From Paraspadella gotoi (lineage: Eukaryota > Animalia > Chaetognatha): a stretch of 36,039 nucleotides of DNA. The DNA lies in contig JBJCIZ010000326.1 in assembly GCA_051294375.1 (NCBI GenBank), forward strand, positions 1 through 36,039. Reading direction: 5' to 3'. Positions 2,821 to 33,860 of this stretch are shown here, piece after piece. A program made the position numbers and the translations under genes. A model generated the notes under the pieces. It was not told where the DNA came from. It searched no databases and worked only from the letters and a program-made list of their open reading frames with translations. Within the stretch, counting starts at the first letter, position 1, and each line of letters opens with the position of its first letter.

Positions 2821-3692
2821 CTTTTAACCAAAATATTGATGGCCTATGATAAGCCGTCTCAAAGCTGAGGCTCAATCTTTCAGAAGCGTTTATGAAGAGC
2901 AGCTGTAATTTTTTTGTGGTGCTGTAGCAGCAATCCTTATCACATTATATTAATAGTAGTAGGCAGGGATTTGGAGCCGGAGCCGGAGCCGGAGCTGGAG
3001 CCGCCGGAGCCGAGCTTTTTTTGCCGGAGCCGGAGCCAGAGCCAGAATTTTTATCTGGCCGGAGCCGGAGCTGGAGCCGGAGCCGAAAAAAATTTTTGAC
3101 CGGAGCCGGAGCTGGAGCCGGAGCCGAAATAAAAATGCCCGGCTCCAGCTCCATAAAAATAAAATAAGATTATAATTATCAAATTAAAAAAATATTTAAA
3201 AAAATATAATATTGATTTTTATAATTAATAAAAAATTTTAACTTACTTGTTTTACTATTTTCTATTTTTCTATTTTTTATTTTTATAATTTATATAATAT
3301 CATATATTTATTATATATAATATTAAGTAAATAATAATAATTTTTATTTTTAATCTATTAAATTTTATTATAAAATACTTTCAATTTTTTATGAAGTAAA
3401 ATTAATCCCTGAATATGCTTTGGCTTACTTAATATAGCAGTCTGATTAAAGGCAAAGCTTTTCAATAATATATTTAAATAATAATAATATAATAATAAAA
3501 GTTATTTGGCTTACCAATTTTTTTCTTATTATATACTTGCAATTTTTGTTACATATGGTTGAAACATATCTATTTAAAAGATAAAAAATTAAATTTACTT
3601 TATATAATACTTTTTATTTTTAACTTTTTAATTAATGAATCCAAAAATATACCATAAAACTTATAATATTAGTTTACTTCTTTCATAGTATT

Positions 3693-5210: not shown

Positions 5211-5459
5211 TTATTTGGAGAGAAAACAAAAATTTGTTATTTGATAACAATGGTTTTGTTGTTATTTAAATCGGATATTTTTCGACTCTAGGACTTCATA
5301 GTTTTTATAGCATTAAATCAAAAACATTTCAGTTTTAAATATGAGTTTGTAATTAAATGCTGATGAAAACTCGAAAGTTATAGAATCGAAACATGTCCGA
5401 TTTAAATAAAAACAAAATTATTGTTGTCAAATAATGAATTTTCGTTTTCTTCTAAATAA
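5211..5459. repeat. Inverted duplication of a Penelope-like hammerhead plus 3' tail (~115-bp arms)
   Basis: 5211-5326 is the diverged reverse complement of 5345-5459. The arm sequence resembles the Penelope tail at 13870-13965. Confidence 0.75.
5351..5406 (+). ncRNA. Minimal hammerhead ribozyme motif with weak stem II
   Basis: CTGATGA at 5360-5366 and GAAACATGTC at 5388-5397. Stem I is ttaaatg / cgatttaa with one bulge. Confidence 0.6.
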
Positions 5460-5554: not shown

Positions 5555-6095
5555 TCTGGCCTCCAGTACATCTCTGTGCCTAAACCCAAACCTAACTGCC
5601 TTTGATGCATCAACCATGGGCTTTTCCCTAACCCGAGCCTCTCGTTCAACTCCATGTTTTCTCCCAAATCTAACCCTAACTCGGGCCTGGGCTTCCCATA
5701 TATCTCTGTGCCTTAACCCTAACCCTATCCGCCTTTGATGCATCAACAGTAAGCCTCTCCCCCTACCCTAACCCAGGCTCCCATTCAACTTCATGCCTCT
5801 CTCCTAACCCTAATCTTAACCCAGGACCGGGCTTCCCTTATATATTCGTACCTCAACTTTATTCCCTAATATCCATTGCCAGTACCTTCCTTAACCCTAA
5901 TGCCGGCTTTTTGTTTAAAATTTTACCTTAAAATTGACATTAACCCTAACCATAACCTTAAACTACTTAACTTTAAGCCTAACCCTAAATTACTCAACCC
6001 TAACCCTATTATTACCAACCAACTTAACCCTAAACCAAACCAACTCAACCCTAATCTAACCTTAAACTATCTCAACCCTAACCTTAACCATAATC
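5555..6095. repeat. Degenerate (AACCCT)n-rich tract including a ~135-bp tandem unit (~2.3 copies)
   Basis: tctctgtgcct.aaccc.aacc...gcctttgatgcatcaac is repeated at ~5571 and ~5703. Many taaccct variants continue to 6090. Confidence 0.7.
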
Positions 6096-6589
6096 TGAGT
6101 TTTAAGTAAAATCCCCATAATGAGAATGCTAAATATAATTTACAATTAAATTACCAAAAAGTGAGGATGTCACCAAAAAATAAAAAAAATATTTTGCTTA
6201 TTATTTTAATATTTTTAAATATAATTTTAATTATATAAATATATTTTTTTTAATATTAAAATATATTATATATTATAATATAAAATAAATATTAATTATA
6301 ATAAAAATATAAATTATATAATTTAAAGAATATATTATGAATATTTAATTTCTTAAATTTTAATTATATATATAGTAATGGAGCCGGAGTTGGCCGGAGC
6401 CCTGGGAAGCCGGAGCCGAGTGAAAATTTTTGCTGTGAGCCGGAGCCGGAGCCGAAAAAAAAAATTTTGCTTGGAGCCGGAGCTGGAGCCCGGAAAAAAA
6501 ATTTGGCCTGAGCTGAGCCGAGACAAAATTAGGTCGGCTCCACATCCCTGGTAGTAGGGGAATTTTCCATTCAATTTTTTTATTTAAAC

Positions 6590-8051: not shown

Positions 8052-8114
8052 CTAAATAATAGAAAATAGATGTAAGTTCAGTAAATTCAGAATTAAGTTT
8101 GTTTTTAATTTTAA

Positions 8115-8810
8115 TAATTAGGTTAGCGGTTAGGGGAAAGGAATTCGGTATAGATTAGGCAAAGGGATTAGTTTAGGGATTTTGTCAAAGTTTTGGTAAG
8201 GAATAAAGGTTAGGAATAGGAATTTAGGTTTAAGGTTAGAAAATAAAGTTAGAGTTGAGGGTAAGGGATTGTGTTGAACTAAGTTCGGAGAGTGGTTTCA
8301 TTGACTTGTAAACTTTTCCGGGCTAACTCTACGCCAAATAAAGCGTTGGTATTTTTGGCGAAATGGCGCAGAGGAGACGATGGCGCTGGTCAAAGACGCT
8401 CAGTAGTTGAGGACGAGAAAGTCTCGGCCACAAAGGCGAAGCCCAGGACGTACAAGTAGTAGTAGAGAGTTATAGTAAAGTTAAGTTGTAGAGGGATTGA
8501 GTTAAGTAGTTAGAAGTCCTGGGCAAAGGATAACAAAACATTTAATTCAAACTCAGCAAATATATACAAAGTTTAAAGAATCTTTCTTACTTGTTTCTGA
8601 AGCCATAATAGTAACAAAAAGCTGCTTCTCTCACAGAAAAGTCCACCAATCCAGCAATTACCAAATAGTTTCTTAAAACTAAAGATTCCGAGGTTTCCAG
8701 AGAACTGAAAGTGCTAGAATGGGCAGATCTATTAGTTCACATCGATAAATCGCAATTAGAATCCATCGAAATCCGATGAACCAATCAGAATCTGCCCCGG
8801 AATCTGTACT
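8115..8810 (-). other. Unclassified repeat-like segment: TTAGGG-like tract, moderately GC-rich leader and a candidate 72-nt intron (8519-8590)
   Basis: ttaggg variants at 8118-8270. 8272-8335 is homologous (inverted) to 14623-14692. The minus strand reads gtaaga...tcctttgcccag. Confidence 0.35.
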
Positions 8811-11059: not shown

Positions 11060-11439
11060 TAACAAAAGTCTAAAACAAAAGATGTCGCTGTAATCGCTGA
11101 AAAGTTGGCAATTCTTGCGTCAGTAAAAAAGACAAAAGAGCACCGGGAAAAGGTGGAGAAGCTGGATTTCATCGTAATATAAAAGATAGTTATTTCGTAA
11201 CAGGGATCATTGATTGAAGTTTGGGATTAGGGCTAGAGATTGGGTTAGGGTTAGAGATAAAGGTTAGGGATTGGATTAAACTTTTGAAAAAGGGTAAAAT
11301 TTAATTTAAGGATGAGGAATCTGAATGGGGCGCTCTCGAAAAAGGGCTTAAGGGAACATAATGACCAAAAATGAAAACATAAGTTTGGGCCTCTCTTCGG
11401 ACGTGATGGTCGAGAGTTAGGGTCATTCTTTCGAGTTTG

Positions 11440-11640: not shown

Positions 11641-12816
11641 TTTAATAAAGGAATTTTAACAGTGGTATGATCTCCTTCATATACGCACAGAGAGAGAGAG
11701 AGACAGAAAGAGAAAGAAAGAGATACAGTACCGGTCTTGGCTTTCCTTCATAAGTCCAGGGAAGCTATATCTTCTATAATAATGAATGGAATGACTTGAT
11801 ATGCATGTGTGGGATGGAACTCGGTATGGTCTATTCCCCATTCTATATTTCAAAAAAAAATTTTGAAGTTTTGTTTTGAGCATCATTTTTAAACAAAAAT
11901 TTAATTTGCATACTCTGCTCAAAATACTTAAAGGATATAATTTTTTTTCTCACTAAAAATTAATCTAACATTACTTGGTCTAATGGTAAAGTGTTAGGCT
12001 GAAAAAAAATATTTATTTATTAATTTAGGCATAGTTGCTAATAATAATAATTAGCATATTATTTATTTTTTATTTATTAGTTCAACTCATTGATATAAAT
12101 TAATAGTTGATTGATAGGCAATTTTATTCCTGTAATCAAATGTATATATTTTTTTTATAATTAACTAAATAGTGTTTTTTTATATATTACTACAAAAATA
12201 TGATTTTTGATAAATAATATTTTGTTTTAAAAAAAATTATGCCAAATTATTGGTGAAATGGTTACTGATTACAAATATATAAATTTTTTAAAATTTGGAT
12301 AAACCCATGAAAAAATACAGACCCAAAAAAGCCCTAAAGATGGTCAAAAACACCCTGTTTTTTTAAACCTTTCTAAAAAACTGCAATAACGCGAATTTCC
12401 AACTCAAATTTGTAAGGTATATTAGAATTAGTAGTATTTTATTGCCTGAAAAAATCCAAAGACGTAGTAATAATTGTTACCTAATTATACAGATTTAATA
12501 GTGAGACGTCCTAAGAAATTCCTGAGGGTAATTTTAAATTTTGTTGAGGTTGTCTAAGTTTTTCTCGTATTTTTCTGTATCTCTCTGTTATTTTCTTCTT
12601 TTTATTACCTCTCCCTTCTTTCCTCATTCTCTCTCTACTCTCTCTCTCTCTCTCACTCTCCCTATCTTTCTTTCTCTATCTCTATTCCGTTCTCTCCTCT
12701 CTCTCTCTCTTTCGCTCTGTCACTTTTTTTTCTGTCAGTTGAACTTTGACTCGTGAGAGACTGCTATGATTTAGGTCTGAATTTATTATTCTTCCTTTAA
12801 GATTTTTACCATCTGT

Positions 12817-13021
12817 ACAGGCCATCTTGTTCAGGGAGTCAGACTGTCTCGTGCTGTCCCATGACCAAAACTGGTTTCAAGAACGGGTATTTAGAGAAGC
12901 AATTTACATCAAAGCTCTCGAGCCCTCTTTGAACCGTGATTCGGACCTCCCTCCAAGCTATGATACGCTTTATCAAAAAGCGTGTGGGAGGCCCCGCCGC
13001 TACCACGCCCGCCACAATTGA
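12817..13021 (+). pseudogene. C-terminal fragment of a Penelope-type GIY-YIG endonuclease
   Basis: ...VLSHDQNWFQERVFREAIYIKALEPSLNRD matches the PLE endonuclease end pattern (IL.E.NWF.R...EAIYI....PSLNRD), preceded by TGH. Confidence 0.85.
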
Positions 13022-13863
13022 TTCCCCTAACTATACTCAACGAGACAGACGGAGACCCTTGCGCAGGCAATGGACAAACGATTTCCACTCCCTCCAAACG
13101 AAGCAAGCTCAGCCCTCTCTCTGTGGAGTGAGCGGCCGGCCCAAAACGACGGGCTTCAGCGAGGAGGGAGAGGAGTTGCCGTCACTCCTGTCGCAAAAGC
13201 GAGCGAAACGGAAAGCCCCCGCCTCGCCAAACAGGCGAGAAGAGGGCAGTCAGCAGGCGTATCCGACCAGAGAAGTATATAAGATGAGGCCGTGGGAATC
13301 TTTCCTCCTCTGGTACAATCCCCAATGCGGCCATCTACTGGTTCAATCCCACTCTCCTCTCAACCATTGACGCTGCCAATGACCCGTCACCTTCGTTTCA
13401 ATGTCCTTCATTTGCATTAAACCAAGGGGGCCAGCTCAATTTGAGCTCTTTCTTAATCCTTGAATTTCACTTCCTAATCACTTGATTACTAAAACAAACT
13501 TTCTTTCACATTTCAAATTTCACATTTCACTTTCTATCCCTTAGCTTAATACATATTTATTCTTTAGTTAATTGTTAAATTTCACTAACATTTAGTTTTT
13601 CAAAATTATTATATTCTCTGTTGTACATTGCACAATGTATCATTTTATTATTTATTTATCCCTCTGTTTCCTCTTCCCTCATTCTCTCTCTCTTTAACAG
13701 TTTCACTTCTTTTTCACAACTCACTCAATCTGTCCTCACCTTCATCCTGTCTCACATCTGACCACACTATTCTGTCTCACCACTTTGTTGGAAAACTTTT
13801 ACCCTCTCTCTCTCTCACACTCTTCTTCTGCACAAAAAAATTTCAATATTTCAAAAAATGTAT

Positions 13864-13913
13864 ATAGACGCTGATGAAGACTTGAACACTACAAGCCGAA
13901 ACATGTCCGTATT
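13864..13913 (+). ncRNA. Minimal type I hammerhead ribozyme (Penelope-type), predicted cleavage after C13907
   Basis: acg-CTGATGA-A-gacttg(aacacta)caagcc-GAAA-CATG-TC-cgt. Core intact, palindromic ACATGT stem III, 3-bp stem I, stem II with one mismatch. Confidence 0.82.
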
Positions 13914-14122: not shown

Positions 14123-14317
14123 ACCGTTCAATACAAGCAGTCCCTGAGCTTCGAATCAGGCTGTAACACAATGTAACAGGCGGGTTAAGCGCCCCATCCT
14201 TTTAACTGCTAGGCGACCACCGGGCTAGAACCCTGACCTTTGGTTTTGGAGTTGAATGACTTGCCTCGGCACCAATGGCCGCTGGATAACTGTTGGTGGA
14301 TTTAGTCCACCATAATA
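14123..14317 (-). mobile_element. Truncated solo LTR of TRIM family A, with tRNA-like module at 14213-14282
   Basis: The reverse complement aligns with 30518-30709 and 30933-31141 and lacks the last ~40 bp of the LTR. It abuts a HINE terminus at 14090-14122. Confidence 0.85.
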
Positions 14318-15853: not shown

Positions 15854-17149
15854 CAGATTGACGTAGATCACTGATCTTACTCTATACCGCGAGCTTCCAT
15901 CCAATTCTGTTATTGAAACCACATCATAAATGCATATCCTCGATAAAATATCACACCTTTCTTCCATTTTTTTAAAGGAGAGAAGAATGAAGGAAAGAAA
16001 GGGAGAGGTAAGTAGAGAAGATAACTAAGATTGTAAAAGAAATACGAGAAAACCGAGACGACATCAGCAAAATATAAAATAGCTGATTTTTTAGGAATGT
16101 CTCGCTATTTAATCTGCTAAATTAAGTAAAAATTATTACTACATCTTTGATTTTTTCAGGCAATAAAATACTACTAATTCTAATATATCCTTACAAAATT
16201 TTGACTGTTTGAAATATTCTTTAGTCACGTTATTCTGCAGTTTTAGAAAGTGTTTAAAAAATAGTGGTTTTGACCATTTTTAGGGCTTTTGGGTCTGTAT
16301 TTCTTTCATGGGTTATCAAATTTAAAAAAAATTATATATTTGTAATCAGTAACATTTCACCAAAATTTGGCATAATCTTTTTTAAACAAAAGTATTATTT
16401 ATCAAAAAATCATATTTTGTAGTAATATATAATAAAAACACTATTTAGTTAATAATCAAAAAAAATTATAAATTTGATTACAGGAATATAAATTGCCATC
16501 AATCAACTATTAATTTATATAAATAAAAAGTTGAACTAATAAATAAAAAATAAATAATAAGCTAATTATTATTATTTAGAAACTATGCATAAATAATAAA
16601 TAAATATTTTTTTTTCAGCCTAACACTTTACCATTAAACAAGTAATGTTAGATAATTTTTAGTGAGAAAAAAAATTATACGTTCAGTTATTTTTGAGCAG
16701 AGTATGCAAATTAAATTTTATTTAAAAATGAATGCTCGAAACAAAACTTCAAAATTTTTTTTTGAAATATAGATAGGGAATTATAGACCATACCGAGTTC
16801 CATCCCACACATCATATCAAAGTAATCATTCCATTCATTATTATAGAGATATAGCGTCCTCTGGACTTATGAAGGAAAGCCAAGACCGTACTGTAGACAG
16901 AGACAGAGAGAGAGAAAAAGAGAAAACTGGACAGCCACTTAGGAAGGAAGCTGTACAGTCACTGCAGAGCCTAAACTCGTTTTAAATGGTTCAAAGAGCG
17001 AGGAACTGACAAATTGACAGGTTTGTTTCTAAATATCTTTTAAATTTAGAGAGAGAAATGATATATGAAATTTGCAGATATCTGTATTACTTTTTTGTAT
17101 TCCTACTATTATTTCTATTTATTAATATATGTTATGAAGATAATTAGTA

Positions 17150-18124: not shown

Positions 18125-19435
18125 AAAAAATGTTACAATTGTTTACTATTGGAAATTGATACAATTTTTTCCAATCATAGCTTGTAACAGATTTTATTTT
18201 TATTTGTATTAAAATTAAGATATAGCTTCACATTAAAAAGGTCTTTTGATTTCACATGTTTTTTTATTGATTCAAAGATTTTTTTATGAATTTCATCTTC
18301 AAAATTATTTACTGCAATATGTAAATTAGATTAAAGTATTTCTATATAATAATTTGGATATTATATTGAGTACTCTAATCTCATTTGCATATTGCAGTAA
18401 ATCATAATGAAGTGGAAATTCAAACAAAAAATACTTACATCCAAATGTAATATAAAAATTTCAAAGCTTTTTTAAGATGAGAAGCCATATCTAAAATTTT
18501 AACTTACTATGATCGCACACTTTTATAAAACTTCATTGTAATTCATAATAATTTTTATTTAAAAAAAAACTGTAAGTCCCAGCAAAACTATAAAAGCATA
18601 GTAGTTTTTATACAAAAAAGTGTGATGCCGACGACGACGACGACTACGTCACAAAGAATCCTGGCCTTCGCTTAATAAAACAGTCTAAGAAAGTTATGGT
18701 AGTCATGTCATGTCACGTCGTCATGTCAAGTCACAAAGAACACACTGATAAGGCAGTCACTGCGGCGTAACACACTAAATTACCGTTCTAGTTTCACAGT
18801 TTCTACATTTAAATATCCTTTTTCCTCAACTAACAGTTATTATCGAGCCTCCCGGCGAAGCCGGTTCAGGCTCGATATTGATTCGGGTTAGCTTCTTTGT
18901 GACTTCGTCGGCGTCATTGTCGTCGTCGTAGTCATAACGCATTTTTATATAAAAACTACTACGCTTTTATAGTTTTGGCTAGGACTTACCGTTTTTTTTT
19001 AAATAAAAATTATTATAAATTACAATGAAGTTTTATAAAAGTGTGCGATTATAGTAAGTTAAAAATTTAGATATGGCTTCTCATCCTAAAATAGCTCTGA
19101 AAATTTCATATTACATTTGGATTCAAGTATTATTCGTTTGAATTTCCACTTCATTAAGATTTACTGATATATGCAAATGAGATTATAGTACTCATTATAA
19201 TATCCAAATTAGTATATAGAAATGCTTTAATCTAATTTACATATTGCAGTAAATAATATTGAAGATGAAATTCATAAACAAATCTTTGAATCAATAAAAA
19301 ACATGTGAAATCAAAAGACCTTTTTAAAGAGAAGCTATATCTTAATTTAAATACAAATAAAAATAAAATCTTTTACAAGCTATGATTGGAAAAAATTTTA
19401 AAAATTTCCAAATGTAGACAATTGTAACATTTTTT
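18125..19435. mobile_element. Inverted pair of a second HINE-like family (18125-18678 and 18838-19435)
   Basis: ~540-bp arms are reverse complements. (GAC/GTC)n microsatellite. Terminal hairpin atcgagcct-cccggcgaagccgg-ttc-aggctcgat at 18842-18876. Confidence 0.7.
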
Positions 19436-22059: not shown

Positions 22060-22489
22060 CGTTGACGTTTAGTCAAATAACGAGGTAAATAATAAGTGGC
22101 AAAGTATTTGGTTGACAATGGTTTTATTTAATGACGGACAATGATTAGGTGATGACATAGGTAACGATGACACGATGACAAAGGTTAAGAACAAAGGTGA
22201 TGACAATATTAAATGGTTTCAATAATTATTAGAAGAAGAGTTCTTTCTTGAGTTTGGGTGTAGAGGTGAATGCCTAGAGTTTTCCTAGCAATTTTTGACC
22301 ATCAATCCCTCCGTCGGTTTCTCTGTCAGTCATTGGTCATTCTAAGGTTGAAGTAAGGTCTGTGATTCGTCGGCATTCTGATGATTCGTGAAGGAGACGA
22401 GCAATCATCACACCTAGGTCAACCAAGTCCGTTTATAGGTCCATTCCGTTGATGTCACCCCCTCTCTAGTCGACGAGGGCGGTGGGTCT

Positions 22490-24628
22490 TAGAACACCAG
22501 ACGAGTCTTTGCTGGTGTCCAACTACACATCTCCAGGTGTATGGGTGCGAGTAGTCTAACAGTTTCCTTGTCCTGAAATGGCATGTGTCTTACAGTCGGT
22601 ACAGGATAATGATGGTGTATGTTTGATGGTCTTGAGAAGAACAGCAGGGGTTCTTGAGTGAGGTGGCTCAATTTTCAGTTCCATTAGTTTGGGAATATTC
22701 CTTTGGCTGGTTGAATGTTGATTTGCTTGTAAGTGGTGCACAAATGGGTTTTGCAAATCACGAAAAGGCGGTTTACAACCCGTAGGTTGAATGAGTATGG
22801 TCTGGGGCGTGGCTTAAAATGCTTTGGTTGGATATAAAGCTTTTTGTCAAATTGGGAAAAATCTGAAGCAAGGGAATTAATCTTTTCTTCTAAGGCTTTC
22901 ATTTGGGCATTTTGAGTGGGGCAAAACTTGAGGAGTCCCTGAACGATGTTGAGAGGGGTGAAATTTAGGTTTATTATTGTTAATGCAGCTCTCTCTACTT
23001 TGATTTTTGCTGTTATCTGAGATATTTTCTTTGGTTTCTTTGGCCTCATTTTTGTAAGTTGTAATTTTATTGTAACATTTTGGAATTTGCTGTTTCATTC
23101 TGGTCTTTTTTCTCTTGGGTATTAGCACTTAAACTTCGGTGGAAGAAAAGAAGTTCATCTAGTGTATCATTAAGAGCTTTAACCAGCCTGGATAAGTCTG
23201 GAATTTTGGTGCCATTTTCTACTGTGTGTGTCTCTGTTTGCGATGCTGAATTGGACATTGTTGGAGTTATATTTTCAGCTTCTGTTTGTGATGCAGAATT
23301 AGACCTTGCAGGTGTTGTTTTCATAACAGTTGGAAGTCAATAGTTTGTGTTTCTGCATCTTTTTTTTGTAGATGTTCTTAAGTAGCAGGTATCTCCTTGC
23401 TTGTATTCGGCTTTCTTCTTCTTCTCGTCTTTTAATTTATTTTTTTCATGGTGAACCTCTGCTTTTTTTCCTTTTGTTCCTCAGTTTGTTGTTCTGTTGT
23501 TCCTAGCTCCATTGAAAGGGGGTAGTGGAACATCTGATTGATTGCTGTTTTAATCCAGTCTTTCCACTTTATAAGATCTCTAGTGATGTCGGCATCATTG
23601 CTTCAGGGTCTTGGATCAGGCCGATCTTAACCATGTTTTTTTGCAATTTTAATTAAACAGTTTCTTCTTCTTGGCTGTCAGGCTGATGACTCTCAGATTT
23701 TAATCTAATAGACTGGTTTTCTAATGAAGGTAAGATATTCCTTTGGCGCCTTTTGAAACTTTCAAATGCTTTATTCCGAATCTTCTATTGCTTCCCCAAA
23801 AAACCTTTATGTAGATTTAAAAGAATGTCTTGAGTATCATCCTCCCTTTTGTAACAATTTAATGATTTTATAGTTTCATATAATACTTTAAATTGTTCGA
23901 GTGCCTTTCAGGCGAAGTTTCCACCAGTGCTGTAGAACAGGATTAGTGCTATCTTCCATTAGTGTCTTTAGGAAGGGTTGTGGCTATAAGATTTTCAATC
24001 ATCTCATATCTTGACTTGTATAATTTTTCAAATTCTTTCCAATTTATTTTTCATTCTCTTTCCACTTTTGAAAATCTTTATCTCTTTCTTTTTGCATTTG
24101 CTCTTCTTTTTCTTCTTCTATCTGTATTTTTCCTTCTCATTTCCTCTTGTTCAATTTCTTTTTCTTTTTCTTCCCTTTCTCGAGATAAGCGCTCAAATTC
24201 TGCTTTGAAAATCTTTCCATCTTCAATTTCATATAACATTTTATGTAGACATCATAATTCTTTTCTGGCCGGATTAAATAACATATTTTCAGATTTGTGG
24301 AGTTTGACTTTGATTGAATAGGTACAATGTCCATTTTCCAAGGTTGGGTTTTTGAATTCAACTGTGAGTCATATGAGGTACTTGGGCCCTAAATGAAAGT
24401 CGAGCCTCATGAGTTAATTTATTTTTGAATAGCTTAACTATTCCTGTGTGGCGGTCCATCAAATGTAGTAGGGGCAGAATAATACCTATAATATAGGTCG
24501 CATCTCTTAGAAATCATTTCATCTTCATTGGCTTGTGGCGTGGGAATAGAATAGGGTGGTGGGTGTGAGTAATAAGCCTGGAGGCCGCAGTTTCAAATTG
24601 GAACCTATTTTTTTACTGTTCTGGCCAT
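22490..24628 (-). pseudogene. Frameshifted coding region within the LTR element: MARTVKK start, E/K/R-rich coiled-coil, SNSASQTE duplication, Cys/His-rich C-terminal part
   Basis: Overlapping minus-strand ORF pieces (24137-24361, 23067-23324, 22684-23049, 22556-22756). Manual translation gives KAEFERLSREREEKEKEIEQEEMRRK. Confidence 0.5.
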
Positions 24629-25206
24629 TTTATTTAGAACGATTTGTTTTCAGTTTTTGTTTTGAGGGGTTCGAGAGGAGAGAGAGAGAGAGAGAGACGA
24701 TCGATGATCTTTTTCGATTTTCTCTAGGATTCGGTCAAGAGCGATGGACTGGGCAGCGAGGATTTTCGATTCGGTTTTCTTTGTTTGAAAGGGATGCTGG
24801 GTCACGTGACGACGTAGTCCAAAGCCACGAGGAAGGGAGAGCGTGGGAGATATAGAGTTTTTTTTTTTTTTTTGCTTGAATTTGAACGGGGGGGAACAGT
24901 TTGAAATTTAGGGAAATAGTACGTTTTTTTGGGGGGGGGGGGTGGAGGGGATTTTTAGTTTGATTTCGTTTTTTTTTTTTTTTTTTTTTTTTTTGTTGTT
25001 GTTGTTTTTTCTTCACTCAGGCTACGTTAGTACGCACTCCTGATTTCGCAAAAAAAGTGTTTTAATTTTAAAGTTATTTCAAATATCAAAAGGGGCAATT
25101 GAAGGAGAAAACTTTGTATTAATTTCTTTCTTTTTTGTTTGTTTATCTTTTTTTTGGATTGAAGGAATTTTCGGGAACGGGAGTTGACGTAATTTTTTTT
25201 GAGTAG

Positions 25207-25292
25207 GGTAGCGTAGTTTTTTCGAGTAGATAGCGTAGTTTTTTCAATTAAGTCTCTTCGGAGGAGTGGGGAGTCGAATCACGACGATGCCA
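25207..25292 (+). other. tRNA-Leu(AAG/TAG)-derived sequence forming an extended PBS of the LTR element
   Basis: AGTCTCTTCGGAGGAGTGGGGAGTCGAATCACGACGATGCCA (25251-25292) versus the canonical metazoan tRNA-Leu 3' half AGTCTCTTCGGAGGCGTGGGTTCGAATCCCACCGCTGCCA. GGTAGCGT (the tRNA-Leu 5' end) lies at 25207-25214. Confidence 0.75.
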
Positions 25293-25739
25293 ACACGTTG
25301 ACGTTTAGTCAAATAACGAGGGTAAATAATAAGTGGCAAAGTATTTGTTGACAATGGTTTTATTTAATGACGGACAATGCCATTAGGGTGATGACATAGG
25401 TAACGAATGACACGATCGACAAAGGTTAAGAACAAAGGTGATGACAATATTAAATGGTTCAATAATTATTAAAGAAGAAGAGTTCTTTCTTGAGTTTGGG
25501 TGTAGAGGTGAATGCTAGAGTTTCCTAGCATTTTGACCATCAATCCCTCGTCGGTTTCTCTGTCGGTCATTGGTCATGTCTAAGGTTGAAGTAAGGTCTG
25601 TGATTCCGTCGGCATTCTGATGATTCGTGAAGGAGACGAGCATCACCATGCACTAGGTCAACCAAGTTCGGCGTTTATAGGTCGCATTCGTTGATGATCT
25701 TATGCACAGCTAAAAAAATAATACAAGTTTCTGTCATTT

Positions 25740-27689: not shown

Positions 27690-30189
27690 CTTGAAAAAAT
27701 ATTAATTATATTGGAAATGAAAAATGTAAGGGACCTGGACTACAGACTGACGAAGAAAGGGGACGCCGGAGGTGAGAGACATCTCACCGACAGTCGGTGC
27801 TCATGGCTTTTGACGAGCTTGTCATACTTAGGAAGCCGTTATAGAAAAAGAATTATATTTTTATATCGATAGATGTGGAATGACGGGAATATTCGTAGAA
27901 ATCTCAAGTTTCAGCTTAATCGAGACCATCACATTGTGGAGAAATTTTAGGAAACCCATCAAAATTCCACCCCCTTTTTTTTTCAACATTCTCGCCTTTT
28001 AAGATTTTCGGCCGATTCTGACTTCCTCTTATCAAAACTTATAATTCCGCTAGTTAATTTTTTTTTCTTAAAGAGTGGAAGGGAATCCACAACTTTCTGT
28101 TATTTATATTGATCTGGGTAAAAAATATAATAAATTAACATTAACATTGGGATATTATGAAAGTGTAATATCTTATGAAGCCTGTGAGAGTTAAATAAAT
28201 TAAAAAGTTCGCTTATTTTATTATTGAAAAATAACATCAAGTGAAGAAGTTGATGGTCTTCGCGCTCATCTCAGTAAACATCCCGTTCTCTAGCATAAAA
28301 TAATGTTTACTTTTTGCTGGCGTGGAAAAGAAGATAAATACTTAGGCCTGTGATGGTGGTGAATAATATTTTGTAGAATTTTGTAAAAGCGATGCGCTTG
28401 TAAATCAGACAAGCAAATATTTTAATATGAAAAAAATTCACATTTTCTTTATCCAAAAAACTTTAAAGTTTACTAGAGTACAATTTAGACCTTTTTTCTT
28501 TCAGAATCATTAAAAAGAAGTTAAATTTTCATTTATTCTTATGGGGTGTCATTAGTTTTAAAATTCATTATAATTTTGACCTTAGTTTGACATTCACCCT
28601 GTAAGGAGGTTTCAGCATAAGTTAATTTAAAATTGTTATCTTGTATGTGCCCTATGATTATGGCTTCATTTTGGTACTATTACCATCCCTTTATCTTTAT
28701 TCCTTCAAAAGATATTAGGAAAAATCAGTTTTTTTTCTCAACCTTCCTTTTAATTTCTTTTAAATAAAAAATTTCGCGATTCAAACAGGACTATTTCATT
28801 TAAACCTGATCATTTTATGTCAAAATCATTATAAAATGAAAAAAGAAAAATAGGACAAGCTCTTCAGACACAAAGCTATCAAGTCGCGAAATTCGAAGTC
28901 GCTCATGTAACAGAGAACATATTGCAATCCCCGTTTGCAATTTTAAGTTTGTTAAACTTTCCCTTTCATTTCTATAGTAAAAATGAGGTTTGAAAATTCT
29001 CTGGAGATGAGTAGTGCATTTCCCCTGGCTTGTTTGAATATTAAATCCTTTATCAAATGCCATAAAACGAATAGGACAAGCTCTTCAGATGTAACGCTCT
29101 CGGAATCGTGCGTTTTTACAAGTGTTTTTTAAACCGACTTTCTGGCAAACGCGTTTGCAATTTGGGTAGTCAGATTTGAACGGAATTCTCTATTAGAAAA
29201 TGGTTGAATTTTTTTTTAAGCGAGATTCTCGTCTATCATACTATGACATAATCATTAAGCCGGGCCAGAATTCAATATTTTTGACAATTTAAAACAGTTT
29301 AAAATAAGTCTTATCTAATTTCATAACCGAATTGATTTGTCAATTTTCATATACAAATCTTTAAAATTTTAAAAAGTTGTATTACTAACCTAGGCAAAAA
29401 TCTTGCTTAAAAAAAATTCTATATTTTTCTAATAGAGATTTCCGTTCAAATCTGACTGCCCAACTTTACAAACGAGCCTTCAAGAAATTCCGGTAGAAAA
29501 CAGTTGTAAAAACACCCAATTCCGACAGCTTTGCATCTCAAGAGCTCGTTCCTTTCTTCTTGTGGAATTTGATAAAGATTTTACTATCAAACAAGCCAGG
29601 GAAAATGGACTTCTCGTCTCCAGAGGATTTTCATACCTCATTTTTACTATAGAAATGAAAGGGAAATTTCATTTTTTTAAAATTACAAACGGGATTAGAG
29701 TATGTTATCATTATAAATGGTACTTCGAATTATGAGATTCCAAAAGCCTTGTGTCCCTAGACCTCATTCTATTTTTCTTTTTATTATTGACCAATTTTTT
29801 CATATTAAACCAACATGGTAAAGTGAATTGGTCCAGTTTTCATCGCGAAATTTTTATTTAAAAAGAAATTAAAAGGAAGATTAAGAGAAAAAACTTATTT
29901 TTCCTAATATCTTTTGAAAGAACGAAGATAAAGGGATGGCAATTGTACCAAAATAAAGCCATAATCATAGGTAGGGATTAGCAGTATTCGACGAAATTTT
30001 TATTTTTCTATCGGCCGAAAAATAATAGGAAATTTGATTCCAAAAAACAAGGATTTTTGAAATATTTACTATATGGAAAATACTAAAAAGAAAAATTTTA
30101 TTTTTTATTTATATGTACTGTAAGGGTAAGTCCAACTAAAAACCGAAAAAGAATCTTTCAAATATAAAAAATATTGGAATAGTACAGAA

Positions 30190-30345: not shown

Positions 30346-30517
30346 CATTTTATATCATCTTTCCTATTGTATATTAAGGCCTATGAATCTTTATTATGTA
30401 TGAAACTCCTATAATATATTTATTATGATCTTAAGATTTATCATGCCTTTTTTCTGCCTACAACAATTCCTCCTTTGCTAAATATACATATTACCTATAA
30501 TTATTATAATGGGTAAT

Positions 30518-31181
30518 ATTATGGTGGACTAAAATCCACCAACCGTTCATCAGCGGCCCAATGGCCGGAGGCAAGACATTCGCCTCCAACAAGTCCGGGG
30601 TTCTAGCCCGGTGGTCGTCCTGGCAGTTAAGAGGGATGGGGCGCTAACCTGCCTGTAACATGGTGTTACAGCCTGATCCAAAGCTCAGGGACTGCTTATA
30701 TTGAACGGTCTTGTCACTAACACATAATAATAATTACGGTCTCTTCATTGGTGAGCCCGACTTCCGAACACAGACAGCGAACAACAACACTTCAGGCGAC
30801 AATGCTCAACCTGGCGATGCACTTTCCGCCCAACAACACATCAGGCGACATGCCTCAACTTGGTGACGAACTTTCCACCAACAAAACAATTCACTGAAGA
30901 GACGCAACAGACTTCTCCCAACGGGGGGGGGATGTATGGTGGACTAAAATTCACACCAACCGTTCATCCAGGCGCATTGGGTGCCGGAGGCAAACGACAT
31001 TCGCCTCCCAACCCAAAGGTCCGGGGTTCTAGCCCGGTGGTCGTCTGGCAGTTAGAGAGGACGGGAGCTGCGCTTAACCCGCCTGTAACGATGGTGTTAC
31101 AGCCTGATCCGAAAGCTCAGGACTGCTTATAATTGAACGGTTTCTGTTCATTAACACTTAATAATAATTACTGTCTCTTCA
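30518..31181 (+). mobile_element. TRIM family A: LTR 30518-30747, PBS 30749-30761, 185-bp interior, PPT 30923-30932, LTR 30933-31181; tRNA-like module in each LTR
   Basis: Direct repeats ending ctcttCA, and the 3' LTR starts TG. PBS TGGTGAGCCCGAC, PPT ggggggggga, possible ATAT TSD. B-box-like GGTTCTAGCCC. Confidence 0.88.
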
Positions 31182-31563
31182 ATATCTTTATTCATAGTCT
31201 TCTTTTTTAACTAAGTTTCAAATATAAACCTAAAGAACGATGTTGATCTACAATTCTCATATTTTTTAATAAAATTGGTCCACTGACTTTTATGTGGTTG
31301 ATCTTTGTTTTTTTTTTTTATCTATGATTTGAATATTTAATTTTTCGTATTTGTTTTTTTCTTTGATTTTAAAGAATCAAAACCAAAAGTAATCGACTTA
31401 GAATCGAAGATTGTAATAAAAATAAAAGAGAAAGAAAAGGGAGGAAAGGGAAAAGAGAGAGGATATAGTGGCGCAGTTTTACGTCATTTACGCCATTTCT
31501 ACGCCAAATCATCTTCAACTTAATAGCTTTATTTGGAAAATGAAAAAAAGTTTTTAACGCCAC

Positions 31564-32323
31564 TTGATGTCAGCAGCACTTAAAGTGCCTCACGCTGTAC
31601 CGTCCCTCACCTCGTCTCAATTGGTGAGCAGCTAAATCATCCACGCCATCCGTGCGTCCCGGGTTCAATTCCCTGGTTATCCCCGGGTTCTGGCTTAAAT
31701 GTGAACGGATGCCCGGTATAAACATGCCAGGACAGGCAGGCGGTCACTGAGGGTCCGCAGCCCACGAAAAGCAACAGTTGGTGAAGATACCCCGCGCCCG
31801 GGTATCACAGGCTATCCTCCCGTTGCCATAAGTGGTGAGCCCTACTCTCGAACACGCAACCGCGTGCGCACCGTGCGCCCATGCTTACGTCGCTTAGGGT
31901 ATGCATATCACGCCTATGCCCTACTTCTCTGGTAACGCTCCAGACTCGCTCGCTCGATCGCGCCCATTCGCTCTCACTACTGGGCAATGAGATCAAAACC
32001 TTCTCTCAGACATCCCTCAGGATTGAGGCCCCTGTGGAGAAGTCTCGGTGGGGGGATCCTGTGGCAAGCAAGACTTAAAGCTGCCTCACTGCTGTCCGTC
32101 CTCAAGCCTCGTCTCCAATGGCTGAGCAGGGCTAAATCATCTCATTCCATCCGTGCGTCCCGGGTTTCAATCCCTGGGTATCGCGGTTCTGGCTTAAATG
32201 TGACGGTGCCGGTATATAACATGCCAGTGGACAGGAGGCGGTCAGCTGCAGGCCGCAGCCCCCTACGCCAGTCTGGTGAATGATATCCCCCCCCGTATCA
32301 CAGGCTATCCTCCCGTTGCCATA
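31564..32323 (+). mobile_element. TRIM family B: LTR 31564-31830, PBS 31833-31845, PPT ~32047-32056, LTR 32060-32323; A/B-box-like module in each LTR
   Basis: Direct repeats with inverted termini TGTGGCAA…TTGCCATA. PBS TGGTGAGCCCTAC, TSD gccac/accac, and CCCGGGTTCAATTCCC at 31658-31673. Confidence 0.85.
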
Positions 32324-33860
32324 ACCACAAAATTAAATGATATTAATATGGTTTTCTGTTCATTTTAGCGCCATTCTATCGCCATAACCTGTATAAAAAA
32401 GGCCGCAAATAATATTAAATCAACTTAACTGAGTGGTTTTTACTAGAAAATTACTAGAAATACGCCGACAGAATAGATAATATTTATATCGTTTTTTGTT
32501 AATTTTACGCCATTCTACGCCACATCTGTATAAAAAAGGCCGGATAAATCTTTAAAACCACTTAACCGAATAGCTTTTACTAGAAAATAATCGGAAAGTC
32601 TTTACGTCTCATCATGATATCATATTAAACGGTTTTACCTTCATTTCACGCCATTTTACGCCACAATTCTTTTCCTAATTTAAATATAAACATTTACACT
32701 TATTTAACCTGATATATTTTAAAATTTTTTTTGGAAAAATCATTAACGCCACATATGTAACTAGGAAATAATACATTTTGGCATACTTTTTACGCCACCA
32801 GCGCCAACAAACACGCAAAAAAAAAATCAAATCTGAATCAAATACTACTATGTATTTTTAATCAAAAAAAAGCGTTTTCCAAAATTTTGGTTGAATATCC
32901 TTGACAGCAGTAAGGAGGCAGAAAAGTTACTCCTAATTGACGTAAATCAGTTGGCGTAAATCAAATATTTAAAAGTCAAACTTGGAATTAACGATTAAAG
33001 TACACTTTGATAGGCTTGATATAAGGTTTAAAACCATCGAATGAAGAAAATCAGTATTTTTAAAATTTTTGTGCAATACCCTATCATAGGGAACATACAA
33101 GATACAATTTTAGAATTTTTTTGCTGAAATCTCTTTACAGGGTGAGTGTCAAACTAAGTCAAAATTATAATGAATTTAAAAACTAATGACACCCCATAAG
33201 AATAAATAAAAATTAAATTCTTTTTAATGATTCTGAAAGAAAAAAAGCTAAATTGTACTCTAGTACTCTAGTGGATAAAGAAAATGTAAATTTTTTGTCA
33301 CTTAAATAATTGCTTGTCTGATTTTACAAGCATGCTTACAAAATTCAACAAAATATTATTCACCCCATCACAGTCTAAGTATTTATCTTTCTTTTCCACC
33401 AGCAAAAAGTAAACATTTTCTTATTTTAGAGAACAGGGACATTTACTGAAAGGAGCCAAGAGATGTTCAACTTCTTCACTTTAATATCAGTTAATAATAA
33501 AATAGGCAAATTTTTTAATTACTCAACTTTGACAGGCTTCACAAGACATTACACTTTCACAATATCCTAACGTTTATGTAATGTTTTATATTTTTTTATC
33601 TAGAAATGATAAAAGATTAGAAAGTTGTGGATTCCTTTCGCTCATTAAAGGAAAAAAAATTAACTAGCGGAATTATAAGTTTGTAAGACTAAGAAGCAGT
33701 CAGAATCGGCAAAAAACTTAAAAGGCGAGAATGTTGAAAAAAAGGGGTAGAATTTCTTCTAAACTCATGGGCCAATTTAGACGTAACTTAAGATTTACAT
33801 TATGGTAAGTCGCCTCAATTATTCCAGTCATTCTCGATCTAAAAATATAAAAATATTATG

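Follow-up and report, generated by a model that had tools for sequence, protein, structure and literature searches.

The window analysed here is a stretch of 36,039 nt from Paraspadella gotoi, in which we found two TRIMs, E1 and E2, lying in the same orientation (+ strand) with 382 bp between them. At 662 bp (E1) and 761 bp (E2) both stay under the TRIM limit of about 1 kb, and each carries two direct LTRs, a PBS 3′ of the 5′ LTR and a polypurine tract (PPT) 5′ of the 3′ LTR. Both are read on the + strand, in agreement with the first-pass annotation, which had described them as TRIMs with that sense strand, and the A/B boxes of both LTR families occur on this strand only. The features of both elements, of their flanks and of a third E1 LTR copy are as follows (T4 and A4 denote TTTT and AAAA).

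30516–30519, + strand: left TSD of E1, ATAT (junction analysis)
30520–30747, + strand: 5′ LTR of E1, ending in CA, without the TG start that the 3′ LTR shows
30554–30620, + strand: tRNA-like segment of the E1 5′ LTR, with an A-box-like motif near 30554–30573 and a B box at 30599–30609 (1 mismatch)
30749–30771, + strand: PBS of E1, tRNA-Trp type (12/13 bases equal the tRNA-Trp PBS in Fig. S2 of PMC10886601)
30782–30879, + strand: internal 49-bp tandem duplication of E1, of varying length among family contigs (joint 30772>30841)
30923–30932, + strand: polypurine tract of E1 (from sequence)
30933–31181, + strand: 3′ LTR of E1, TG...CA, with an A box near 30979 and a B box at 31025–31035
31182–31185, + strand: right TSD of E1, ATAT (junction analysis)
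31203–31208, + strand: first T4+ tract past E1 (T6), a candidate terminator, 21 nt beyond the 3′ LTR
31560–31563, + strand: left TSD of E2, CCAC (junction analysis)
31564–31831, + strand: 5′ LTR of E2, with an A-box-like motif at 31613 and an exact B box at 31662–31672
31833–31855, + strand: PBS of E2, tRNA-Trp type (repeat and PBS comparison)
32047–32056, + strand: polypurine tract of E2 (from sequence)
about 32060–32324, + strand: 3′ LTR of E2, with an exact A box at 32119–32130 and a B box at 32164 (1 mismatch)
32325–32328, + strand: right TSD of E2, CCAC (junction analysis)
32352–32355, + strand: first T4 past E2, a candidate terminator, 27 nt beyond the 3′ LTR
14123–14314, − strand: third E1 LTR copy, 3′-truncated, with an A box, a B box, a 7/7 acceptor-like stem and no sense T4

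The two LTRs of each element are identical at 215/223 (E1) and 237/246 (E2) aligned bases. Both insertions have an empty counterpart: one contig (record 28) of public run X8 joins 30514 to 31181 across E1, and a joint 31556>32325 across E2 is found in 3/4 public runs. Run X8, a guessed RNA run, was treated as DNA on the grounds that all 30 bins are covered and empty sites are present. The TSD of E1 can also be read as a 3-bp ATA, because the 5′ TG is absent in this read. Furthermore, loose contig ends in public run X1 gather at the two edges of the E1 5′ LTR, about 100 each at 30520 and 30747. While the PBS is 87% identical between E1 and E2, their LTRs show no alignment beyond chance (P = 0.09). 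E1 and E2 are genuine, mutually unrelated TRIM insertions. E2 is embedded in a dispersed repeat (31460–31563 and 32325–32800) with a period of about 140 bp, rich in the word TTTACGCCA.

Neither element has a recognisable coding part: at E ≤ 0.1 Pfam matches neither of their two stop-to-stop frames (125 and 115 aa), and a Pfam search of 10 ORFs in the window gave nothing above the cut-off. The E1 family could be followed in contigs of public runs (8076 from X1 and 1565 from X5, with thin cover at 30560–30590 and 30770–30800), where the summed contig depth of E1 is far above that of most flanking bins, a hint at many copies and not a count. No E1-family contig was matched in public runs X10 and X11 from two other organisms, which is no proof of absence. 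Relatives were also sought in a metagenome collection (1 match, at chance level), among viral contigs (0 matches) and in prokaryote genomes (9 isolated 18-mers against about 17 expected by chance, none extendable).

Next, we examined the LTRs for a tRNA-type promoter. On the sense strand, 5/5 LTR copies carry a pair of A and B boxes 37–62 nt apart; on the antisense strand such a pair occurs in 0/5. Compared with 3000 dinucleotide shuffles each, the P values per copy range from 0 to 0.013 (E1 5′ LTR 0.004, E1 3′ LTR 0.012, E2 5′ LTR 0.013, E2 3′ LTR 0.008, and 0/3000 shuffles matching the box score of the third E1 copy), values that are optimistic as the scoring rule was written after the motifs had been seen. 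The box consensus was taken in part from PMC10886601. The same sense-only pattern recurs in both LTR families, which are unrelated in sequence. In E1 the B box is invariant across three LTR copies that differ elsewhere, and all three carry a T at a conserved purine; in E2 the B box of the 5′ LTR and the A box of the 3′ LTR are exact, and many E2 family contigs are without one T at 32165, in the B box of the 3′ LTR. Searches for whole tRNAs, run on this indel-noisy read, were negative. Four Rfam scans of the E1 and E2 LTRs returned no tRNA match at E ≤ 10 and only chance-level non-tRNA matches, and nothing in the window reached the Rfam gathering threshold. ARAGORN, run on the same LTRs, called no tRNA at the default, 95% or 90% threshold and gave inconsistent calls at 80% and 70%. 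We also found no Rfam match to 5S rRNA in the LTRs. A long-range inverted repeat of the E1 LTR (30541–30549 and 30702–30710) encloses the tRNA-like part; the fold z-score of this copy is −3.0, and those of the other three LTR copies folded are not significant.

The first-pass annotation had pointed to the absence of TTTT from the sense strand of both elements amid T-rich surroundings, and our counts bear this out. E1 (30518–31181) and E2 (31564–32323) have 0 T4 each, the 382-bp gap between them holds many T runs, and A4 occurs several times on the + strand (3 runs in E1 and 2 in E2, 5 in total). Two of the three E1 runs represent one LTR position, at which the third E1 copy has only A3. The further proposal, selection for Pol III read-through as the cause, was not supported. 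In single elements the probability of no T4 under mononucleotide shuffling is 0.27 for E1 and 0.20 for E2; under dinucleotide shuffling it is 0.11 and 0.71. Taken jointly, the two intervals give P(0 T4) = 0.057 and P(A4 − T4 ≥ 5) = 0.053, figures that count the LTRs twice. Because duplicated LTR makes up roughly two thirds of an element, the corrected null uses one non-redundant unit per element, and it accounts for the absence (P(0 T4) = 0.23; P(A4 − T4 ≥ 4) = 0.09; P(T4 = 0 and A4 ≥ 4) = 0.05). A composition-matched null was the refuting check that the first-pass annotation itself had named; by this check the absence is true and an excess over chance is not found. The GC content of E1 is 51% and that of E2 57%, against about 30% around them. 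Among the GC-rich control stretches in the window, 8/8 have at least one + strand T4; the non-TRIM control nearest in length and GC (12740–13440, 701 bp, GC 0.51) has 1 T4 and 4 A4. Collectively, the absence of T4 is true and tends in the direction first proposed, yet it is not significant; a GC content of 51–57% together with a sense-strand A bias suffices, so that the absence within this window needs no selection. Weak purifying selection against T4 is possible.

We then asked how far run lengths in the window can be trusted. The two LTRs of E1 differ by 8 mismatches and 20 gap opens, those of E2 by 9 and 34, and those of a further LTR element at 22060–25696 by 2 and 21. This dominance of single-base indels among the differences between repeat copies suggests an unpolished long-read sequence, and homopolymer run lengths in so indel-noisy a window are unreliable. 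At the level of the E1 family, none of the listed common variants yields T4 (33 substitution rows at ≥12% and 12 of 24 indel rows, X1/X5), in line with a sense strand without T4 in E1 beyond the single read. The sole LTR site able to give T4 (30709–30712 in E1) has an interrupting C in 96% (X1) and 99.8% (X5) of summed depth. This family-level check refers to E1; the E2 family was viewed at coarser resolution only. For the A4 at 30883 we considered a read error, an explanation that we rejected as this A4 is polymorphic in the E1 family.

The known elements closest in design are Helenus (TRIMp3; Kojima 2024, PMC10886601), which the available part of that paper describes as TRIMs of 311–1263 bp with a tRNA-like segment in the LTR, the animal ones having 4-bp TSDs and a Gypsy-like PBS. 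E1 and E2 share with them a length under 1 kb, LTRs of 230–265 bp with A and B boxes, a PBS and a PPT, a 4-bp TSD as in animal Helenus and a tRNA-Trp PBS as in Helenus-2_SyJa; according to Fig. S2 of PMC10886601, as far as available, Gypsy-32_NVi also uses this PBS type. E1 and E2 differ from Helenus in that the tRNA-like part lies early in the LTR, with 130–150 bp after it, and in that their resemblance to tRNA is too eroded or too noisy for Rfam to recognise. When five motifs of the window were sought in the available Data S1 of PMC10886601, none was present, a result in which line breaks can hide matches. The 4-bp TSDs and the repeat content of this AT-rich, repeat-rich DNA fit an animal host. 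We conclude that E1 and E2 are probably two new Helenus-type families, of an element class already described.

To place the T4 absence, we tallied T4 in published Helenus sequences by eye, in Data S1 of PMC10886601 (supplement parts 1 and 5–9; the sums leave out parts 2–4, which are fungal, as well as part 9 and whatever in part 5 is not from vertebrates). The families counted are related to one another, and the tally includes no Pol II TRIM control. In these parts a T4+ tract follows the B box in 26/26 fungal, 17/31 bivalve, 22/25 mixed invertebrate and 19/19 wasp LTRs, that is in 84/101 non-vertebrate LTRs in total, in contrast to E1 and E2, which have no such tract after the tRNA-like part. 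Among vertebrate Helenus LTRs in the same source T4 follows the B box in 0/18, and in Ajax in 0/2. The internal parts present a different picture: T4 is found there, again by eye, in 0/24 fungal, 3/31 bivalve, 3/24 mixed invertebrate and 3/16 wasp elements (9/95), and A4 in 12, 27, 12 and 13 of them (64/95). The available vertebrate internal parts hold T4 in 0/16. Exceptions in part 9 are Helenus-2_SyJa and Helenus-2_SyUm, which hold several internal T4. A blanket depletion of T4 across the class was rejected on the whole supplement file as available (tttt 247 against aaaa 230; ttttt 44 against aaaaa 102). The T4-poor internal parts suggest that avoidance of T4 is real within the Helenus class, as the first-pass annotation had guessed. 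The usual Helenus design nevertheless keeps a T4 tract in the LTR, so that an element need not be free of T4 to belong to the class.

T4-free LTRs do have precedent in vertebrate Helenus (the LTR-11_DR group and LTR1_LCh) and in Ajax, which resemble E1 and E2 in having no T4 after the LTR promoter or in internal parts. They differ from E1 and E2 in that no sequence match is seen by eye and in their primers (His, Leu, Lys), and Ajax also by its 5S-derived promoter and 5-bp TSDs. Cassandra, as the consulted part of PMC7215508 describes it, is likewise a TRIM whose two LTRs each hold an internal Pol III promoter and whose transcript extends from the 5′ LTR into the 3′ LTR, and read-through transcripts are reported there; it differs in being a 5S-derived plant element, reported to keep its terminators inside the LTR, with no 5S match in E1 or E2. 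Alu and other tRNA- and 7SL-derived SINEs have an internal A/B promoter, and their transcripts end in the flank, at whichever T4+ or non-canonical signal comes first. This is the mechanism that the first-pass annotation had proposed, and the part of PMC4333407 covered here treats it as an accepted route for Alu; unlike E1 and E2 the SINEs are non-LTR elements, amplified by target-primed reverse transcription, without PBS or PPT. The T4 terminator is itself described as weak and structure-assisted in yeast in the excerpts consulted. For Helenus, the authors of PMC10886601 propose the use of Pol III and by their own account have not validated it, and in the available text they mention terminators for Cassandra only.

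We consider it somewhat better than an even bet that E1 and E2 are TRIMs read by Pol III from the A and B boxes of their LTRs, with no terminator of their own, read-through to a host T tract, a Gypsy-type partner and a tRNA-Trp primer. Under this model Pol III would start just upstream of the A box in the 5′ LTR and, without a terminator, would pass the PBS, the PPT and the entire 3′ LTR; with the boxes inside the 5′ LTR and no T4 run, read-through across both LTRs is likely. Transcription would end 20–30 nt downstream, where the host DNA offers its first T tract: the T6 at +21 for E1 and the T4 at +27 for E2. With a median of 46 nt to the next T4 in the window, a nearby T4 in the flank is automatic in this genome, and the closeness of the flank tracts is no evidence in itself. 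A Gypsy-type partner would then probably reverse-transcribe the element RNA with tRNA-Trp as primer, and strand transfer would use the repeated part of the LTR, which is established biology for LTR retroelements. Analogy with animal Helenus makes Pol III use, termination in the flank and a Gypsy partner plausible.

Other explanations make different use of the same features. E1 and E2 may be ordinary Pol II TRIMs whose A and B boxes were left behind when a SINE or tRNA was captured long ago, and in which T4 is missing only through composition and the usual A-rich sense strand of retroelements. We find this rather unlikely: the boxes are well spaced, sense-only and present in two independent families, the B box is unchanged in three copies that differ elsewhere, and the canonical poly(A) signal (AATAAA or ATTAAA) is in neither E1 nor E2. 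On the other hand, this explanation agrees with the corrected null (P(0 T4) = 0.23) and the GC-matched control (1 T4, 4 A4), with the failure of Rfam and default ARAGORN to find a tRNA, with a TATA-like word in both LTRs of E2 and with the imperfect B box of E1.

Alternatively, Pol III could transcribe the elements and stop inside the 3′ LTR, where RNA structure would assist a weak, non-canonical, T-rich signal that is leaky in the 5′ LTR; the arrangement would then be the typical one of Helenus, except that the tract has decayed. The post-tRNA tract in most Helenus LTRs (PMC10886601, as far as available), the non-canonical terminators accepted for Alu (PMC4333407, in the part consulted), the strengthening of weak tracts by hairpins described for yeast in the accessible passages and the T-rich 7-mer of E1 at 30696 and at 31141 all fit such an ending. 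It is nonetheless improbable, given that E2 has no 7-mer with at least 5 T from the A box to the 3′ end and that a C breaks the E1 run in nearly all of the summed depth (96% in X1, 99.8% in X5). A terminator would also be unneeded if a self-cleaving ribozyme in the LTR set the RNA ends, as in retrozymes. The tRNA-Trp-primed Helenus-2_SyJa and Helenus-2_SyUm, with no T4 tract and by eye a hammerhead core in the LTR, and a multi-hairpin region 3′ of the B box in the E1 LTR go in this direction. We rate such processing as very improbable, because descriptor searches for the hammerhead, the ribozyme of retrozymes, and for HDV-like motifs were negative in E1, in E2 and in the third copy, a loose twister-like regex match occurred once, in one E2 LTR only, and Rfam gave no ribozyme match; the fold z-scores of the LTRs are −3.0, −0.4, −1.0 and +0.1, significant in 1/4 copies folded.

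Returning to terminator-less Pol III transcription, we speculate, with considerable doubt, that two designs exist among Pol III TRIMs, a division that we did not see described. The common one would combine a single leaky T tract directly after the tRNA part with an internal region purged of T4, and the other would have no terminator and borrow host T tracts in the manner of a SINE. E1 and E2 might be of the second kind, in a host lineage without published Helenus and with the T4 absence kept by selection. If termination in these families does depend on T tracts of the host, how active a copy is would vary with where it has inserted, and read-through could contribute to tandem arrays. A literature search, with subscription papers outside its scope, found no paper that deals with avoidance of T4, or with where terminators are placed, in TRIMs of the Helenus type, and the consulted passages of later papers citing Helenus or on Cassandra do not treat T4 avoidance. 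What this study contributes is two families that are probably of the Helenus type and, in published sequences, a pattern open to testing; it does not support selection against TTTT as the cause.

Two further groups of observations concern ribozyme-like motifs and other repeats. Inspected by eye, the wasp LTRs Helenus-2_SyJa-LTR and Helenus-2_SyUm-LTR each show the core of a type III hammerhead together with its pairing stems, and these two may be Helenus-retrozyme hybrids; in the main text of PMC10886601, as far as available, hammerheads appear only in a reference title. The window itself holds three short cores of hammerhead-like sequence (CUGAUGA...GAAAC), alike in their flanks, at 5360 (+), 13871 (+) and 3789 (−). 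The core at 13871 follows, at a distance of about 850 bp, a frame (12770–13021) that has no Pfam match and resembles the GIY-YIG endonuclease end of Penelope-like elements.

The LTR element at 22060–25696 (− strand, 3.6 kb) has LTRs at 22060–22454 and 25296–25696, identical at 383/385 aligned bases with the 21 gap opens given above, a TGGCATCG-type primer site and ORF fragments without a Pfam match above the cut-off; it is possibly a young non-autonomous element. The many long inverted repeats of the window are foldback or MITE-like elements with arms 76–90% identical (522–1503; 28651–29971; 11724–12639 with 15976–16895; 18125–18658 with 18893–19435; 27962–28658 with 33083–33755). Degenerate CCCTAA/TTAGGG telomere-like tracts lie within dispersed repeats (about 5580–6100, 8100–8270 and 11220–11280), and GC-rich GGAGCC tandem arrays at 2955–3155 and 6370–6560 flank a small repeat family.
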